Source of the DNA: an uncultured Candidatus Saccharibacteria bacterium
GTDB lineage: Bacteria > Patescibacteriota > Minisyncoccia > JAHCSD01
Length of the DNA stretch: 45,239 bases
Assembly (NCBI GenBank): GCA_964373435.1
Contig: CAYJUS010000001.1
Coordinates: 473 to 45,711 of the forward strand
Reading direction: 5' to 3'
Shown: positions 36,935 to 45,239 of the stretch, piece by piece
How positions within the stretch are numbered: the stretch's first letter is position 1
Layout: each line of letters begins with the position of its first letter
Made by a program: the position numbers and the translations under genes
The notes under the pieces: model-generated
What the model saw: only the letters and a program-made list of their open reading frames with translations
Database searches by the model: none
What the model was told of the DNA's origin: nothing

Positions 36935-37034
36935 ATACTCTGGCTGAAACCAAACCGTCAAGATGTTTCTCTTGGTTCGCGCGCCCGGACGAACGGGCCT
37001 GCGGTTTTCTCGCTTCTCGATGAAAAGAAAAATA

Positions 37035-37355
37035 TCACGAGCGGATAGAAAGTTTCTTAAAAGGAGGGTGGTTTATTTTTCGCAATCTTGTGTTGATTTT
37101 TTCAAGAAAAACGTTTTGGTGCAAAAACAAAGTCCCCGCGGCATGGGGATTTTTTATCCTTAAAACCAAGGTGCCGCGCACCACATTCTCCACATGATAA
37201 AGAGAACGAGGGGAGGGTTTTTTTGTCATTGCATCCAATCCTTCTTCGCGGACCACCTCCTCTATGATTTTCTCCAACCCTCTCTTTTGTAGTTGGTCAT
37301 TGAGGCGGAAACGGTTTGCTAACCGAAAAAGAGAAGATGATATGTGGCGAAACAA
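37035..37355 (-). CDS. DUF721/DciA-like protein
   Basis: 106 aa immediately downstream of dnaN, with the block RGTLVLRIKNPHAAGTLFLHQNVFLEKIN typical of the family. Confidence 0.55.
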   Translation of the reverse strand: MFRHISSSLFRLANRFRLNDQLQKRGLEKIIEEVVREEGLDAMTKKPSPRSLYHVENVVRGTLVLRIKNPHAAGTLFLHQNVFLEKINTRLRKINHPPFKKLSIRS

Positions 37356-37373
37356 AATAGAGTAGTAAAATGG

Positions 37374-38492
37374 TTAACCGTTCTTGATGGGCATAACAAG
37401 ATAGAATTGAAGAGGGTCTTCGGGGGACGTTAAAATGACGGGTTGGATTTCGGAATTTATCCCGAACACCACTTCTTTCGCCCCCATGCTTTCCAGTCCA
37501 TCGAGAAGAAATTTCCAATTAAACGCGATGGAAAGATGCTCTCCGGGAAGTTTTATTGATTTAGCAAACGGAATAATAGTAGCACCCTCTCCAGAAGAAG
37601 ATTCACGTGCCGCAAGTTCCACCCGATCTTTAAAAAAGTCAAATGTGATATCGTTCGATCGGTTCGAGAAAGCGCTGATCGCTTTAATTTTTGGTACCAA
37701 AACAGACGAGGAAAAAGAAACATGAAAAGACGTGTCTCGCGGAACAATCTCGTCATACCGGGGGAATTCTCCGTCAATGAGACGCGAAACCAACTCACAG
37801 TTTTCGTTATTAACTACAACTTGATTTTGATCTCCCGCAAGAAGGGTGGTTTTTTCGTCGCCTCCGCTAAAAACCCGAATAATTTCGTTCACCGATTTCG
37901 ATGGAAGAATAAACGAAAAATCATTTTTGATATCCCCAAGGGGTATTTTTTTCTCGGTAAGCCGAAAACTGTCGGTAGAAGCAAGAATAAGATGATGCGC
38001 TGAGGAGTCTGTCTTCAAAAAAACACCAGTGATCTCCGGTCGCATTTCCGAAACACCCGCGATTCGTACAACTTTTTCCAAACCCGAAATAAACTCTTTT
38101 GTGGTTATTGGTATCCTCTCCCCTTTTTTGGGTTGCGGAATAATAGGAAATTCTTCGGGATCGCTACCGAGAATTTGTGCTTTGTAGTGTTCCGTTTTAA
38201 GTAGTATGTTGTGTTTTTTTGATTCCAGCGTTATTTTTTTCGCGCCGACAAGGTTGTGCACAAATGTGCTGATTAATTTCGCGGGAATAGCTGCTTTTCC
38301 TTCCTCTTCTATTTTCCCCGGTATCGTGCAGGTGATTGCCATTTCAAGGTCTGTGGAAGAAATGGTAATTTTGTTTTTTTCTGTGCGGATAAGAACGTTG
38401 CTTAGAATAGGAAGGTTGACGTTTTTCCCCGCGATACGTTCTGTGATACGCAACGCTTCTCGCAATTTTTCTTGTAGACAAATAATCTTCAT
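37374..38492 (-). CDS. dnaN: DNA polymerase III beta sliding clamp
   Basis: 372 aa starting MKIICLQEKL, with three-domain length and a position downstream of dnaA. Confidence 0.9.
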   Translation of the reverse strand: MKIICLQEKLREALRITERIAGKNVNLPILSNVLIRTEKNKITISSTDLEMAITCTIPGKIEEEGKAAIPAKLISTFVHNLVGAKKITLESKKHNILLKTEHYKAQILGSDPEEFPIIPQPKKGERIPITTKEFISGLEKVVRIAGVSEMRPEITGVFLKTDSSAHHLILASTDSFRLTEKKIPLGDIKNDFSFILPSKSVNEIIRVFSGGDEKTTLLAGDQNQVVVNNENCELVSRLIDGEFPRYDEIVPRDTSFHVSFSSSVLVPKIKAISAFSNRSNDITFDFFKDRVELAARESSSGEGATIIPFAKSIKLPGEHLSIAFNWKFLLDGLESMGAKEVVFGINSEIQPVILTSPEDPLQFYLVMPIKNG

Positions 38493-38710
38493 AATTATTA
38501 TCCGTATTTATTAATAGTTTATTGTTGTTAAGAGAGGCTTGAAACCTGTATAACTCTTTTTTTTCGCTTATTTTAAGGGAATTATGTGTTGTGGGGAAGG
38601 GGAGGAAGAGAGGAAAAACAGAGGGGGGAACACAGGAAAACACACTTTTTATTCTTCCTGATTTCTTTCCCACCGTTTTTCCATATTTTTTCCCCTTGTT
38701 TTCCTCAATC

Positions 38711-40165
38711 CTACCCGTTTTCCATGTATAACCTTTCTCGTAACGAATTGATTTCTTCGAGAAGCGTGTCGCTGTTCTCCAGTTGTCTCGTAATTTTTTC
38801 GCATGCGTGCATAACCGTGGTGTGGTCCCGTCCTCCTAACTTCATACCAATAAAAGGGTAAGAAGACTTTGTCTCTTTTCTCAGAAGATACATAATGATT
38901 TGTCGCGGGACCACGAACTCTTTTTTTCGTTTTTCACTGATAATATCTTTTTCACTCACGTCATAAAAAACCGAAACCACCCGGAGCACTTTTTTCCACC
39001 CTATCACCTTGTTGTTTTTCGAAATCACAGGGGCGAGGATGGTTTTCGCGGTTGCAGGATTTGTTATGCTTTCGGGGTTTGAGCGCGAGGAAGCCGCAAG
39101 CCGGTTCAGCGCGCCTTCAAGTTCTCGGATGTTGGTTTGGATATGGGTGGCGATAAACTCACACACCTCGTCGGTGGGGTTTAAGCCGCGCTCCTTCGCC
39201 TTTATTTTCAAGATCGCGATGCGTGTTTCTAAATCAGGTTGTCCGATATCAGCGATCATTCCTCCCTCGAAACGGGAGCGGAGTCGCCCTTCGAGCGTTG
39301 CGATTGATTTTGGAGGTCGGTCAGAGCTCAAGACAATCTGTTTGTTCCTTTCGTACAGCTCGTTGAATGTGTGGAAAAACTCCTCTTGTGTTTTTTCTTT
39401 TCCCGCGAGAAACTGGATATCGTCAATAATAAGAACATCAACTTTCCGGTATCGGTCCTTAAACTCTTCTATTTTTCTGTCTCGTATAGAGGTGACAAGC
39501 TCCCCGGTGAACTTCTCGGACGTGACATATTTTATGTTCTTCCGCGCGGGTTTCTTGGCTATTTCGTTGCCGATTGCCTGGAGAAGATGTGTTTTCCCAA
39601 GTCCCACCCCTCCATATAAAAAAAGAGGATTGTATAGCGTACCCGGGTTTTGTGCGACGGACCAGCTTGCTGCATGCGCCAGTTCGTTGGACCCCCCCAC
39701 TATAAAAGAATCAAATGAATATTTAGAATTCAGGTTTGTGGCTCCGTTGATTTTCGGAACATCCAAATTCAGTTGTTTTTCGTCGTATGAATTCACCAGA
39801 GACAATGTGTCCCGCGAGGATGATTTTTTCGGCAAGAGCGCCCTGGAGGTTTCGACCACATACTCGACCTTGTTTATTTCAGTGGGCAACCCCTTGAACA
39901 CCTTGAGGAGAGACGCGCTGTATTTATTTTGCAGCCATTCTTTTGTGAAACTATTGGGGACGCCTATGGTTGCGGTTTTGTGTTTTTTCGAAATAAGCGA
40001 GGTATTTTTGAACCACGTGGTAAAGCTCGCTCGAGAGATGTTGAGCTCTATTTCTCCTAAAACCGTTTTCCACAGTTCTTTGTTCGTCATGTTTTCCCAA
40101 TGCGGCGAGTCCGCTTTTGCGTATGATCTAAAGAGGGGGCGGTTGCGGCGTTGGCCTTGGTTCAT
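38711..40165 (-). CDS. dnaA: Chromosomal replication initiator DnaA
   Basis: Walker A GGVGLGKTHL, DDIQFL, sensor and box VII regions, and the C-terminal HTH DHTTVMHA. ATG 40165 has GAGGGTGG upstream. Confidence 0.95.
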   Translation of the reverse strand: MNQGQRRNRPLFRSYAKADSPHWENMTNKELWKTVLGEIELNISRASFTTWFKNTSLISKKHKTATIGVPNSFTKEWLQNKYSASLLKVFKGLPTEINKVEYVVETSRALLPKKSSSRDTLSLVNSYDEKQLNLDVPKINGATNLNSKYSFDSFIVGGSNELAHAASWSVAQNPGTLYNPLFLYGGVGLGKTHLLQAIGNEIAKKPARKNIKYVTSEKFTGELVTSIRDRKIEEFKDRYRKVDVLIIDDIQFLAGKEKTQEEFFHTFNELYERNKQIVLSSDRPPKSIATLEGRLRSRFEGGMIADIGQPDLETRIAILKIKAKERGLNPTDEVCEFIATHIQTNIRELEGALNRLAASSRSNPESITNPATAKTILAPVISKNNKVIGWKKVLRVVSVFYDVSEKDIISEKRKKEFVVPRQIIMYLLRKETKSSYPFIGMKLGGRDHTTVMHACEKITRQLENSDTLLEEINSLRERLYMENG

Positions 40166-40185
40166 TGTACCACCCTCACGATATT

Positions 40186-40248
40186 TTATCCACAACTCCT
40201 CGTCAAGTTTAAAACCTTGTTTACAGCCTGTGGATTATCTGTTGATAA
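40186..40248. promoter_or_regulatory. DnaA box cluster upstream of dnaA
   Basis: TTATCCACA (40186-40194, perfect), TGTGGATTA (40229-40237) and TGTTGATAA (40240-40248), the latter two with 1 mismatch each. Confidence 0.6.
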
Positions 40249-42373: not shown

Positions 42374-42397
42374 GGCGTGTGGGGCACGCTGTTTTTT
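42374..42397 (+). terminator. Intrinsic terminator after jag
   Basis: Stem gcgtg/cacgc followed by tgtttttt. Confidence 0.45.
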
Positions 42398-43813
42398 ATG
42401 AAAAAGAGCATCGCATTTAATACATTGATTTCGAGCGGGGCTCGCGTAATCGGAAGCGCGCTTGCATTTGCGAGCTTCGCCGTAATCGCGCGCGCGCTTG
42501 GGAAGGAGGGATTCGGGATGTATTCTACCGCAATGGCGTTCGGATTCACCGCAAGCGCGCTCGCGGATTTGGGTCTTTACTCGGTCCTTATAAAAGAGAT
42601 ATCGCAAAAGGATGCGGACGAGAAACGGATCACCGCTCATATTTTTTTCCTCCGCGTTCTGATCCTTCTTTTCGTGTCCCTTGCGGTGTTTGCATTCGCG
42701 GGGATTATCCCTCTTTACTCCCCCGTCCTGAAACTCGCGATTGGCCTTGGGGTCGTAGCGTTTGGGTTTTCCAGTCTTTCCCAGCTTTTGATTGCGATCT
42801 TTCAAAAACACTTCAGTCTTGAGAATGTGGCGATTGCGGAGGTGGTAGGAAGAAGCGCCCAACTCCTTTTGGTGTGCATCGCGTTTGTTTCGGGGTGGGG
42901 GCTTTACGCGTTTTTGTGGGCGGCGATCATAGGCGCCTTTTTTATCTTTCTCGTGGAGTGGGTGCTCTCGCGAAAATTCGTTTCGTTCGGGTTTGAATTT
43001 AACCCTTGGTATGCGCGCGAACTTTTCGTAGCCGCTCTTCCCATCGGCGTTTCTTTGGTCTTCACTCTCATCTATTTCCGGGTGGACACTATTTTACTCT
43101 CCCTAATGAAGCCGGCCGAAGACGTAGGGATATATAATGTGGCGTATAAAGTGCTGGAGTTTGCCATATTTTTCCCCGCGGTATTTGCGGGGATCGTAAT
43201 GCCGCTCCTTTCGCGCTACGCCCTGTCCCAAAAAGAGAAATTCAGAGACGTCTTTCAAAAGTCTCTTGATATCATTATTATTTTTGCAACACCAATACTT
43301 TTCGGGGGCATGATCCTTGCTCCTAAAATCGTGGTGCTTGCAGGAGGAGGAGAGTTTGCGGCATCCGCCGCGCCATTGAGGTGGCTCTTGGTTGCAGTAT
43401 GGTTTATTTTCCTAGGGAACCTCTTAGGACGCGCGATAATTGCGCTTAACGAACAAAAAAAAGCCGCGTGGGTCTATTTCGGCGGCATGATCTTTAACGT
43501 GGCCGCGAACCTTGTGTTTATCCCTCGATATTCCTATACTGGCGCAGCCGCGACCACGGCAGTTACCGAGCTTATTATCACTGCGCTTCTTTTTGTGATT
43601 ATAACAAAAAAGACTGGGTTTGTTCCTCGCGTGCGGCCGGTATTCACGTCAGCACTCTTTTCATCTTTTATGGTGATTCCTGTCTATTTTTTTCGTGAAC
43701 AGCACTTCTTATTTGTACTTCCCGGCGCGATTGTCCTCTATCTTGTTCTCGTTTTTCTTTTTCGCGTTATCGACCGGGAGAAACTCTCTTTTCTTTTTCA
43801 GAGCCACGAATAA
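42398..43813 (+). CDS. MOP-superfamily flippase (Wzx/MurJ-like polysaccharide or lipid II flippase)
   Basis: About 470 aa with ~12-14 TM segments and the N-terminal block NTLISSGARVIGSAL. ATG 42398 is chosen over the upstream GTG. Confidence 0.65.
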   Translation: MKKSIAFNTLISSGARVIGSALAFASFAVIARALGKEGFGMYSTAMAFGFTASALADLGLYSVLIKEISQKDADEKRITAHIFFLRVLILLFVSLAVFAFAGIIPLYSPVLKLAIGLGVVAFGFSSLSQLLIAIFQKHFSLENVAIAEVVGRSAQLLLVCIAFVSGWGLYAFLWAAIIGAFFIFLVEWVLSRKFVSFGFEFNPWYARELFVAALPIGVSLVFTLIYFRVDTILLSLMKPAEDVGIYNVAYKVLEFAIFFPAVFAGIVMPLLSRYALSQKEKFRDVFQKSLDIIIIFATPILFGGMILAPKIVVLAGGGEFAASAAPLRWLLVAVWFIFLGNLLGRAIIALNEQKKAAWVYFGGMIFNVAANLVFIPRYSYTGAAATTAVTELIITALLFVIITKKTGFVPRVRPVFTSALFSSFMVIPVYFFREQHFLFVLPGAIVLYLVLVFLFRVIDREKLSFLFQSHE

Positions 43814-43831
43814 ATGATTTTCTGCGTCGTG

Positions 43832-43860
43832 AACAAAAAACCGCTTCAGGCGGTTTTTTG
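43832..43860. terminator. Bidirectional intrinsic terminator
   Basis: aacaaaaaaccgc-ttcag-gcggttttttgtt. Confidence 0.7.
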
Positions 43861-44060
43861 TTCATGTTTGTTCACGTTCATATATTACACCACACCCGGT
43901 GCGACAACTTCGAATGCGCGAGCCCGTTAGACAACAAGGGGATATACCCGCAGAAAACAAACAGAAAAGTTCGATGGGATAGCGCATGGAAACCAACGGG
44001 CCGTTTTGTTTCGAAGTTGTAGCACCGGGCACACTTTTTCTGAATGGATGACAGTCATGG
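43855..44060 (-). repeat. Leader repeat copy 1 (orphan; no downstream gene)
   Basis: The 153-nt core 43881-44033 is identical to 44778-44930, and the flanks are ~80% similar. The closing stem is 43895-43914 / 44010-44029. Confidence 0.85.
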
Positions 44061-44106
44061 AATTAGTCATGGAATTTGGATGTCATGGAATTTGGAATTA
44101 GTTTGT

Positions 44107-44772
44107 TTAGTTCAGGTTGCAACAGAGGATTTGCCTTTGCCCCGTGTTTGTCCTGTCTATACAGATATCGAATTGGGTGCGGCAGTAAGGCTTTATGATT
44201 TCTCCGGTGGCGTCCCGCGGGTCCGGAAACGATGGACAGCGTATTCCGCTTGAAAGGAGGGCGCTCGATGTTACCACCGTACAGCCACAGGTTGCAGCGG
44301 CGATCGTGGGCGAGCTCAAACAAGACTGGAACACCGATGTATCCAGGATGATGGGTGATGGTCCGCGACTACTCCCCTCTCCGAAAGAAAAATTAGGCGG
44401 GGGAGGCACACCGAGTTGCGCCAAATCAGGATTGATCGTCCTTAGAATAAGGACGGAGCCGAGAAGCAAAAAGAGGCCGAGGAGCGCGCCCTGTATCCAT
44501 TCTTTTGCGTCGTTCTGGCCGGCCCCGCTTCCCGCAGAGGTTATGTACTTGATTCCGCCGAATACCAAAACGCCAAAGGCAAGCGCGCCCGCGGCCGCAA
44601 GCCCGAACCGAAAGAACCATTGGATAAAGTCCGGCAGGGGGGGGACGCTCGATCCAAGATCCGGGTATTCAAGCTCGAGCTCTTGTGCAAAAACAGGATA
44701 TACAAAAAATCCGTAGATCGCTACAAAAGAGAATAACAATAGCGAAAGCGTGGAAAGCTTAACTTTTTTCAT
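44107..44772 (-). CDS. Secreted or membrane protein with a TrbC/VirB2-type pilin-like core and a Cys-rich C-terminal extension
   Basis: Signal peptide (..VYPVFAQE), two hydrophobic helices flanking SAGSGAGQNDAKEW, and 9 Cys in the last ~75 aa. The family call is tentative. Confidence 0.6.
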   Translation of the reverse strand: MKKVKLSTLSLLLFSFVAIYGFFVYPVFAQELELEYPDLGSSVPPLPDFIQWFFRFGLAAAGALAFGVLVFGGIKYITSAGSGAGQNDAKEWIQGALLGLFLLLGSVLILRTINPDLAQLGVPPPPNFSFGEGSSRGPSPIILDTSVFQSCLSSPTIAAATCGCTVVTSSALLSSGIRCPSFPDPRDATGEIIKPYCRTQFDICIDRTNTGQRQILCCNLN

Positions 44773-44958
44773 GTTTGTATATTACACCACACCCGGTGCG
44801 ACAACTTCGAATGCGCGAGCCCGTTAGACAACAAGGGGATATACCCGCAGAAAACAAACAGAAAAGTTCGATGGGATAGCGCATGGAAACCAACGGGCCG
44901 TTTTGTTTCGAAGTTGTAGCACCGGGCACATTTTCCCGTGAATGTACGACAGTCATAG
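44765..44958 (-). repeat. Leader repeat copy 2 (5' leader of gene 44107..44772, includes its ATG)
   Basis: The core 44778-44930 is identical to copy 1. The 20-bp closing stem is 44792-44811 / 44907-44926. Confidence 0.85.
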
Positions 44959-45016
44959 AAAGCATCATAGAAAGGAGTCATAAGAAGGAAGGTCGTGGGA
45001 AGGAACCGTAGGGGGA

Positions 45017-45239
45017 TCACAGGATTCTCCCGACGGTATTCCCCCATAGCCATTCATCGGCACTACACAATTGTTGGTTGAGGCCGCTGTATAGCCCCGT
45101 GGGGTCTACCCCTCCCAGAAGTCCTCCGCTGCATCCAAAGTTATATAGCGCAGTTCGTATCCCTCCCGCGTCGGTTGCTACTAAAATAGTGAGAATCACC
45201 GCAACAATGAGAATGTCTATCACCCAGCCTACCGGAGTT
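45017..45239 (-). CDS. C-terminal part of a second pilin-like membrane protein (5' end outside the window)
   Basis: The ORF is open to the window edge. A hydrophobic helix is followed by a Gly/Cys-containing tail. Confidence 0.45.
   Translation of the reverse strand, partial: TPVGWVIDILIVAVILTILVATDAGGIRTALYNFGCSGGLLGGVDPTGLYSGLNQQLCSADEWLWGNTVGRIL

Follow-up and report, generated by a model that had tools for sequence, protein, structure and literature searches.

Here we report that a 45,239-nucleotide stretch of DNA from an uncultured Candidatus Saccharibacteria bacterium (GenBank assembly GCA_964373435.1, contig CAYJUS010000001.1, positions 473 to 45,711; the whole stretch is called the window) carries two identical repeats, one on each side of a gene for a pilin-like protein. 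Judging from sequence comparison, they are very probably two copies of a 135-bp non-autonomous mobile element with hairpin-forming ends, similar to a miniature inverted-repeat transposable element (MITE) and belonging to a Patescibacteria family. Full-length members of this family measure ~290-345 bp, and their sole gene encodes a ~95-aa GIY-YIG nuclease of the UPF0213/SLX1 type. We hold it to be reasonably probable that this nuclease is the mobility enzyme. A first-pass annotation, made from the letters of the window alone, had read the repeats as a structured leader of pilin-like genes with one orphan copy.

Two identical hairpin-ended units in the window

The two repeats share a maximal identical block of 153 nt (43881-44033 and 44778-44930; 153 of 153 positions, offset 897 nt), in full agreement with the first-pass annotation. 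With their diverged flanks they extend over 43867-44037 and 44764-44934 (171 nt at 97% identity), and a further 34-nt stretch is 76% identical, which bears out the similarity with indels previously noted around the core. Each copy contains a 135-nt unit, measured end to end, whose 20-nt inverted arms, CCCGGTGCGACAACTTCGAA / TTCGAAGTTGTAGCACCGGG, are complementary at 19 of 20 positions (95%); these arms form the 20-bp closing stem with one mismatch that had been described. The arm pattern occurs four times in the window against 0.00 occurrences expected by chance, and both copies are flanked by CACA on either side (TGTG on the - strand). The copies have different flanks inside one contig and are therefore not a collapsed assembly repeat. 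The relevant features are as follows.

43895-44029, unstranded: element copy 1, a probable MITE-like, non-coding, hairpin-ended unit of 135 bp; arms at 43895-43914 and 44010-44029
43915-44009, unstranded: interior of copy 1
43891-43894, unstranded: left 4-nt direct repeat of copy 1, CACA on the + strand and TGTG on the - strand; a single TGTG stands at the empty site of locus L032
44030-44033, unstranded: right 4-nt direct repeat of copy 1, CACA
44792-44926, unstranded: element copy 2, the identical 135-bp unit; arms at 44792-44811 and 44907-44926
44788-44791, unstranded: left 4-nt direct repeat of copy 2, CACA
44927-44930, unstranded: right 4-nt direct repeat of copy 2, CACA
44107-44772, - strand: open reading frame (ORF) of the 221-aa protein resembling type IV secretion system (T4SS) pilins, between both copies; sub-threshold match to PF18895, carried by homologues

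As in MITEs, the window element is short and non-coding, with inverted ends, a fixed duplication, an empty site (for copy 1) and coding relatives that have the same ends. It departs from MITEs in that its partner enzyme is a GIY-YIG nuclease, which belongs to no known transposase class. Neither coding capacity for a GIY-YIG protein nor similarity to one was found anywhere in the 45-kb window, the element copies included, and these copies are therefore taken to be non-autonomous. A protein search with the reading frame that runs through the element (MPGATTSKQNGPLV...) returned no homologues, and the interior of the element showed no similarity above chance to the nuclease gene of its relatives.

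An empty site for copy 1 and possible origins of copy 2

Locus L032 comes from the same metagenome-assembled genome (MAG) as three loci with related elements (L003, L004 and L009) and is syntenic with the window across dnaA, yidD, yidC, Jag/R3H, a flippase and the pilin-like gene. The pilin-like genes of the two loci are 42% identical, and the L032 orthologue has the element on neither side. On the - strand of the window the surroundings of copy 1 read ...CATTCAGAAAAAGTGTG, then the 135-nt element, then TGTGGTGTAAT (the following stretch is also given as TGTGGTGTAATATA), and the empty site of L032 reads ...CATTCGGGGAAAATGTG^ACGTATTAAAAATA (^ACGTATT...), with TGTG present once. The single TGTG at this position indicates that copy 1 was inserted into the 3' flank of the 221-aa gene, duplicating 4 bp of target, and is not the orphaned leader that the first-pass annotation had seen in it.

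For copy 2 two histories are possible. Identity between copies 1 and 2 over the 60 nt adjoining the arms is ~71% on one flank and 61% on the opposite one, and there are indels. Since the core is 100% identical and the flanks only 60-70%, the second copy is recent, and the identity of the cores is the result of recent copying, not of selection for a pilin-specific function. Firstly, a segment of ~200 bp comprising flank and element may have been copied to the upstream side of the 221-aa gene. Secondly, the paralogous 3' flank of the upstream gene may have received the element through a second insertion or through gene conversion.

A stricter version of the first of these would have local segmental duplication alone account for the repeats, the hairpin being an ordinary, immobile palindrome within a ~200-bp intergenic segment copied beside the gene. 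It would account for the common 4-nt repeat and partly homologous flanks of the two copies, and for a flank motif that in L032 lies only downstream of the pilin-like gene; however, it explains at most the second copy, an empty site exists for copy 1, and the same arms recur with different 4-nt repeats at at least 17 other sites in other genomes. We regard this explanation as rather unlikely.

A family defined by its arms and flanking duplications

When the arm pattern was scanned against one genome per species, paired arms appeared in the Patescibacteria MAG JAHCSD01 (L003, L004 and L009), and a relaxed rescan revealed second arms also in two Saccharibacteria MAGs (L005 and L008); single-arm matches in the genome scan numbered four, which equals the chance expectation. 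A metagenome scan with the arm pattern added L010-L015. In viral contigs the relaxed pattern gave two single-arm matches, and a scan of these contigs for GIY-YIG relatives gave one locus, L043, with no matching arms in the stretch inspected. Elements that share the arms of the window are found at the following loci.

L003-L005, L008, L009, L014, L015, L018, L022, L033, L036, L037, L049, L050

The arms of the family have the form CCCGGTGCNACAACTTCGAA ... TTCGAAGTTGTNGCACCGGG and constitute terminal inverted repeats of 20 bp. The elements recovered by the arm scans are 71, 110, 133, 135, 139 and 285 nt long, and all characterised elements fall between 71 and 345 bp. The same arms stand beside unrelated genes elsewhere, which agrees with the earlier suggestion that the element is maintained independently of the genes around it.

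An inverted-repeat scan of ~302 kb of DNA yielded 21 elements, 19 of which have perfect 4-nt direct repeats at their flanks, an outcome with a chance of 1/256 per element; the other two represent the same site, with three of four repeat positions matched. The flanking repeat is TATG at most sites, TGTG at both window copies (- strand), and CTTG, TACG or TTTA elsewhere. It varies between sites and is therefore not part of the element.

Homologues and covariation, both of which the first-pass annotation had proposed to look for, were found, the former in other Patescibacteria and Saccharibacteria assemblies and the latter in the arms. Compared over 14 distinct elements, the arms pair at 96.8% of positions, and both sides have changed in 12 of the 20 pairs (GC to AG/CT, TTCGAA to ATCGAT, ACTTCG to ACAACG), a degree of covariation reached by none of 500 shuffles and approached by no slid register. 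The outer CCCGG is almost invariant, and position 9 is unpaired in five of the 14 elements. In L044, which belongs to a distant nuclease clade, CCCGGTAGT is kept, the inner arm is different and the duplication is TACG. Near-perfect complementarity maintained over such divergence suggests that the paired form of the arms, whether hairpin or cruciform, matters, as might be expected of a substrate for an SLX1-like enzyme. The same covariation would result from two identical ends bound by a protein, and it cannot separate these from the arms of a hairpin.

Near-identical imperfect palindromes of ~130 bp that separate unrelated neighbouring genes and fold as single strands also recall the attC sites that mark gene cassettes in integrons. 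The resemblance does not extend to the core sites, since the arms have GTTGTAG/GTTGTCG where GTTRRRY is required (CGACAAC / GTTGTAG versus RYYYAAC / GTTRRRY), or to the stem, which has one mismatch in place of extrahelical bases and an unpaired central spacer. Moreover, insertions of this family duplicate 4 nt and occur at start codons within operons, and its long members encode a GIY-YIG nuclease and not a tyrosine recombinase. An integron-type recombination site is barely credible here.

Traces of repeated insertion and decay accompany the family. L022 has two tandem elements of ~75 nt, both flanked by TTTA, and at L050 (1290-1312) the solo 3' arm of a decayed element lies directly ahead of an intact one. 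At L011 (1309-1332) rpsL, which starts at TATG, is directly preceded by a solo 3' arm (TTCGAAGTTGTAGCACCGGG); no 5' arm is recognisable, and the sequence looks like the remnant of a decayed element. Contigs end at the arms in L003, L012 and L013, where the arms break assemblies. A separate repeat of ~260 nt (..ctaggactcgaacagaatcaatttagcggagtgcattcag..) is common to two JAHCSD01 contigs (L003, 1030-1300; L004, 50-330); in L004 it lies ~35 nt from the hairpin element, and it has no Rfam match at gathering scores.

Full-length members encode a small GIY-YIG nuclease

On the strand that shows the flank as TATG, the 285-nt element of L005 reads ATG-CCC-GGT-GCT-ACA-ACT-TCG..., translated MPGATTSK, and continues into a GIY-YIG domain with one frameshift. 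The repaired L005 ORF was used as a protein query to retrieve relatives, and it returned 122 proteins of ~95 aa carrying PF01541; all source names given are Patescibacteria lineages. Most of the proteins inspected start with MPGATTS and end with ...YYQSKL. In the main clade both termini are translated arms: the first codons give M-PGATTS and the last give SKL followed by the stop codon, a TAG inside GTTGTAGCACCGGG. Several of the nuclease loci share the layout TATG|CCCGG...(ORF)...CCGGG|TATG, this being the only insert between two host genes.

A GIY-YIG ORF between arms of the window type is found in L018, L033, L049, L022, L036, L037 and L050, and PF01541 is matched in the full-length relatives at E 2e-13. 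Residues Y14, Y25, R35, H39 and E71 are invariant or nearly so. The ratio of nonsynonymous to synonymous substitutions (dN/dS) is 0.07-0.10; the comparison includes L018 and L033, two copies in one MAG that are 90.8% identical and have unrelated flanks. Judging from these ratios, the nuclease ORF is under purifying selection and is a working gene. L008 and L010 have kept only the N-terminal third of the ORF, and these deletions, together with the frameshift of L005, indicate a decay series from coding to MITE-like elements.

No DDE, HUH, serine or tyrosine recombinase was found inside any element. The ends could still be served by a conventional transposase that is encoded elsewhere and recognises the 20-bp repeats, with the GIY-YIG gene as a passenger or accessory (for example a homing or repair helper). 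Terminal inverted repeats with a duplication of fixed length are the hallmark of DDE transposition; no GIY-YIG transposase is known, and none was found in the literature searched. Such a division of labour is difficult to reconcile with the nuclease ORF being the sole gene between the arms in all seven intact full-length elements and in the frameshifted L005, from different assemblies, with the strong purifying selection on it, and with the change of the inner part of the arm along with the nuclease clade (L044, L050). Moreover, no transposase gene adjoins any element, save for an rve fragment 1 kb away in L023. This arrangement is decidedly improbable, and we return to the nuclease as the favoured mobility enzyme below.

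An exhaustive profile search brought the nuclease family to 3,927 clusters (50% identity) at E <= 1e-10. Outside the main clade, a soil contig (L051, 1466-1765) has a GIY-YIG ORF with the tail ...YLTG and an inverted repeat of its own of 14-16 bp (CACCCCGTGAGATA / TATCTCACGGGGTG), the 3' arm of which encodes YLTG and the stop codon; many family representatives end in YLTG. Based on L044 and L051, the larger UPF0213-like family may be mobile in the same manner, with clade-specific ends.

Within the GIY-YIG ORF of L022 (3024-3055) we observed, by eye, a nested mini hairpin of 32 nt (CCCGGCGCTACAAC-CAA-GTTGTAGTAACCGGG) flanked by CGAA/CGAA. Hairpin and repeat together make 36 nt and therefore add 12 in-frame residues, and these residues are also present in the diverged proteins P0034, P0056 and P0062. 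No further mini hairpins of 26-70 nt were found under strict settings. At L049 (2476-2764) the protein P0048 is annotated from an internal Met (MFFY...); the ORF itself begins further upstream, at the flanking-repeat ATG (MPGATTSIMFFY...), with a TATAAT box 6 nt ahead of it. It seems that the arms mislead start-codon annotation; they also create spurious ORFs starting with MPGATTS.

Insertion at host start codons

At 11 of 12 testable sites flanked by TATG, a host ORF of 66-474 aa takes its initial ATG from the downstream repeat copy. The hosts comprise rpsE, rpmB, mscL, an ftsK-like gene, secA, truD, a lexA-like gene, two PFOR subunits, and PrgI-like and TraC-like T4SS genes. The target profile is A-rich upstream, followed by T (15 of 17), A (14 of 17), T (16 of 17) and G (17 of 17). 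The nuclease ORF opens with the upstream ATG copy and its accompanying host initiation signals; 1 nt separates the 3' arm from the start of the host ORF, which lies 9-10 nt beyond the stop codon of the nuclease. Successive insertions at one start codon are seen in proteins that read ...EVVAPGMPGATT. The window sites, gaaaaagTGTG and gggaaaaTGTG, are one position off this profile and do not lie at a start codon.

Two full-length elements lie, independently, inside T4SS-like clusters of the candidate phyla radiation (CPR), at the start of a TraC-like gene in L018 and of a PrgI-like gene in L022. Together with the pilin-like gene of the window, they may reflect either chance or a bias towards such loci.

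RNA readings of the repeat

Folded as RNA, the element reaches -58.9 kcal/mol on the + strand (z -4.9 versus shuffles) and -58.4 kcal/mol on the - strand (z -3.2); the DNA fold has z -5.6. Both strands are thus far more stable than shuffles, as expected from the convincing fold first described, and the inner 7-bp helix gcccgtt/aacgggc of that description is present in the minimum-free-energy structure. On the sense strand, mismatches in the arms amount to six G-U and three A-C (hand count).

The strong sense-strand fold speaks for the cis-regulatory leader RNA of the pilin-like genes, either a riboswitch or a protein-binding leader, that had been proposed. Copy 2 does lie upstream of the 221-aa gene as had been stated, its arm 19 nt and its identity block 5 nt before the ATG, and an 8-bp inner helix (- strand) is common to the interiors of the window element and of L004, with one double and three one-sided compensating changes between these two sequences only. 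Nonetheless, the pseudoknot atgcgc/gcgcat and the competing GTTGTC segment that were to provide the switch are not kept in L004, the sole relative with a homologous interior (alignments, read by eye). Interiors are unrelated between subfamilies, only the arms being conserved, with the exception of L004 at 64% identity to the window interior, and an RNA with a function in the 95-nt interior would not look so. Rfam gave no match for the whole window at gathering scores, and at E <= 10 for 43700-45239 the best match had E 0.07 and fell on the terminator, the others being chance matches; the earlier remark that no known riboswitch class is recognisable is consistent with this. Furthermore, the same arms stand at many unrelated host genes, the syntenic L032 orthologue lacks the element, and copy 1 lies downstream of the gene. 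A leader RNA of this kind is very improbable indeed. Scans for tRNA and tmRNA found none in or near the element, and a promoter scan gave no full sigma-70 match near it.

Whatever its origin, the hairpin might have been domesticated in the pilin operon as an RNase III processing site, 3' stabiliser or attenuator. A near-perfect 20-bp duplex in a fold of -58 kcal/mol, situated in both copies between or after co-oriented genes, would suit such a use, and the rRNA genes of CPR bacteria tolerate insertions that bear GIY-YIG (Tsurumaki et al., 2024; PMC11270868). In rRNA genes, RNase III is the enzyme that typically removes intervening sequences. Against this, the orthologous L032 locus works without the element, and the identity of the copies is expected from recent copying alone. 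We consider domestication quite improbable. Among the three options first offered for the repeat, a leader RNA, a module for recombination and a 3' stabiliser, the recombination module comes nearest to the mobile element favoured here, and the pilin-gene leader or cis-regulatory RNA is unsupported.

Comparison with known systems

The closest parallel in anatomy is provided by the Correia elements of Neisseria, which are also multicopy, non-coding and ~100-150 bp long, with terminal inverted repeats of ~20-26 bp and a short fixed duplication, lie close to genes and are co-transcribed as a long hairpin. Unlike the window family they duplicate TA and have no known autonomous partner, and other MITEs derive from insertion sequences with DDE transposases. 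The window family shares its ends with elements that encode only a 95-aa GIY-YIG protein, duplicates 4 bp (mostly TATG), and sits mostly on start codons. Rickettsia palindromic elements are short palindromic repeats able to lie in frame inside coding sequence, as does the mini hairpin of L022, but no enzyme is known to be associated with them and they are not known to prefer start codons.

Free-standing GIY-YIG homing genes (phage T4 seg genes and relatives of I-TevI) likewise have a GIY-YIG domain and are small selfish genes wedged in the same orientation between host genes, and a weak match to TIGR01453 was found. Homing enzymes are ~200-250 aa long, have a DNA-binding domain and long specific targets, and spread through homologous repair with neither inverted ends nor duplications, whereas the family described here consists of a bare catalytic domain at sites that share only an A-rich stretch and TATG, with inverted ends and 4-nt duplications. 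A homing-endonuclease gene was accordingly rejected: the catalytic domain fits, but the sites lack a long target in common and do have duplications. Diversity-generating retroelement template and variable repeats, retrons, CRISPR and group I or II introns were also set aside. Both copies are intergenic, lack coding content and do not differ from each other; models of reverse transcriptases, Cas proteins and introns gave no match, and inverted ends with a duplication explain the anatomy.

With respect to the enzyme, sequence similarity to solved structures is highest for BH0048 and EF2693, both UPF0213 proteins, and for the structure-specific nuclease SLX1 (1zg2, E 1.8e-10; 1ywl, 4.5e-7; SLX1 7wme, 6.6e-5). 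Bacterial UPF0213 proteins, at ~90-107 aa, are of the same size as the element nuclease. UPF0213, YhbQ and SLX1 proteins are described as stand-alone or repair nucleases, and neither bracketing inverted repeats nor mobility were found reported for them in the literature. GIY-YIG-encoding insertions have been described in rRNA genes of CPR bacteria, the same bacterial group (Tsurumaki et al., 2024), and the GIY-YIG passages of that paper describe no terminal inverted repeats, target duplications, start-codon targeting or ORF-less derivatives.

The pilin-like locus and other features of the window

The 221-aa protein is hydrophobic and matches PF18895 at E 1.9e-4, below the Pfam cut-off, and many of its homologues carry PF18895. 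The pilin-like character given to it at first therefore holds as a weak resemblance to T4SS pilins, its own domain match being sub-threshold. For the partial upstream gene, similarity to the gene that precedes the L032 orthologue is weak. The terminator hairpin described beside copy 1 is borne out as a terminator-like structure. The surroundings of the two copies comprise the following features.

43828-43866, unstranded: intrinsic-terminator-like hairpin, outside the element, between the convergent flippase gene (42377-43813, + strand) and the pilin-like genes
43867-43890, - strand: other-side flank of copy 1, running into the terminator; homologous to 44764-44787 with a 10-nt indel
44034-44100, - strand: 3' flank of the 221-aa gene, with GTCATGGAAT-like short repeats and the A-rich target context (...cattcagaaaaagTGTG, - strand)
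44779-44784, - strand: TAATAT hexamer 6 nt upstream of the ATG of the 221-aa gene, a possible -10 box, read by eye
44931-44990, - strand: paralogous flank beside copy 2 (...cattcacgggaaaaTGTG, - strand)
45017-45239, - strand: 3' end of an upstream hydrophobic gene, partial, running off the window

By alignment, the flank at 44034-44100 is homologous to 44931-44990 and to L032 at ~860-890. Tandem-like short repeats occupy these 3' flanks at 44041-44100 and 44939-44990, with GTCATGGAAT three times and TCATAGAAAG-like units beside copy 2, and one such unit is also present at the syntenic L032 site. The TAATAT hexamer hints at a -10 box for a leaderless transcript, and the same spacing of 6 nt before the ATG is seen at several other element sites, including L049.

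Elsewhere in the window, two adjacent paralogous genes on the - strand (678-1733 and 1775-2788; 351 and 337 aa) have in common a stretch of 300 nt with 90% identity (986-1285 versus 2041-2340). G+C falls to 0.40-0.42 at 37000-39000, compared with ~0.50 elsewhere, around genes just upstream of dnaA (38711-40195, - strand), and the rpmH-rnpA-yidD-yidC-jag cluster comes after dnaA; this is probably the replication origin region.

Discussion

It seems that the repeats of the window are best understood through the family to which they belong. The window copies would be moved in trans by the nuclease of a full-length copy with CCCGGTGC arms at another place in the genome; this enzyme would act on the hairpin or cruciform that the arms of the window copies form. 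An ORF-less derivative would have entered a near-cognate site (A-rich followed by TGTG) in the 3' flank of the 221-aa gene and become copy 1. At start codons, the element would borrow the initiation signals of the host and hand it a fresh ATG. Expression of the host gene may then survive by termination-reinitiation (translational coupling); alternatively, it is possible that the 20-bp stem brings the upstream signals beside the second ATG (hairpin bridging). At the pilin locus the element may do no more than form a stable hairpin in the shared transcript, without a regulatory role of its own.

Several points weigh against this interpretation. The empty-site comparison covers copy 1 only, and in it one side aligns clearly, the other with no more than moderate similarity. 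The copies share flanks and the 4-nt repeat, and the second could be a local duplication in place of a transposition. No presence/absence polymorphism was seen between near-identical strains, and the 45-kb window holds no full-length element, the autonomous partner in the same genome being assumed. In the distant clade of L051 inverted repeats bracket the ORF, but with no clear flanking duplication. The inner 8-bp helix kept between the window and L004 hints at room for some function of the interior. Lastly, GIY-YIG nucleases are hydrolytic, and we know of none that acts as a transposase; for this reason, the role of the nuclease as mobility enzyme is only an inference.

Taken on its own, the feature in the window is ordinary, and what the analysis brings to it is the removal of a false lead: in place of a pilin riboswitch there are, very probably, two copies of a mobile repeat. 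The family behind these copies appears to be undescribed and mechanistically unusual. It was not found described in the full-text literature, most subscription journals lying outside the search. We advance only tentatively, and at somewhat under even chances, the broader proposal that it is a new class of autonomous prokaryotic transposable element, the smallest known at ~290 bp, which would be moved by a bare 95-aa GIY-YIG nuclease of the SLX1/UPF0213 type acting on the hairpin or cruciform of its 20-bp ends and would insert at start codons with a 4-bp duplication.

If this proposal is true, GIY-YIG would join the short list of enzymes that drive prokaryotic DNA transposition, and no autonomous element known would be smaller than those of this family. 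The very common small UPF0213/YhbQ proteins, whose function or mobility was not found described in our literature search, would gain a possible role. Moreover, the family would show how Patescibacteria, with their tiny and densely packed genomes, can survive a parasite on the start codons of essential genes such as rpsE, rpmB and secA.

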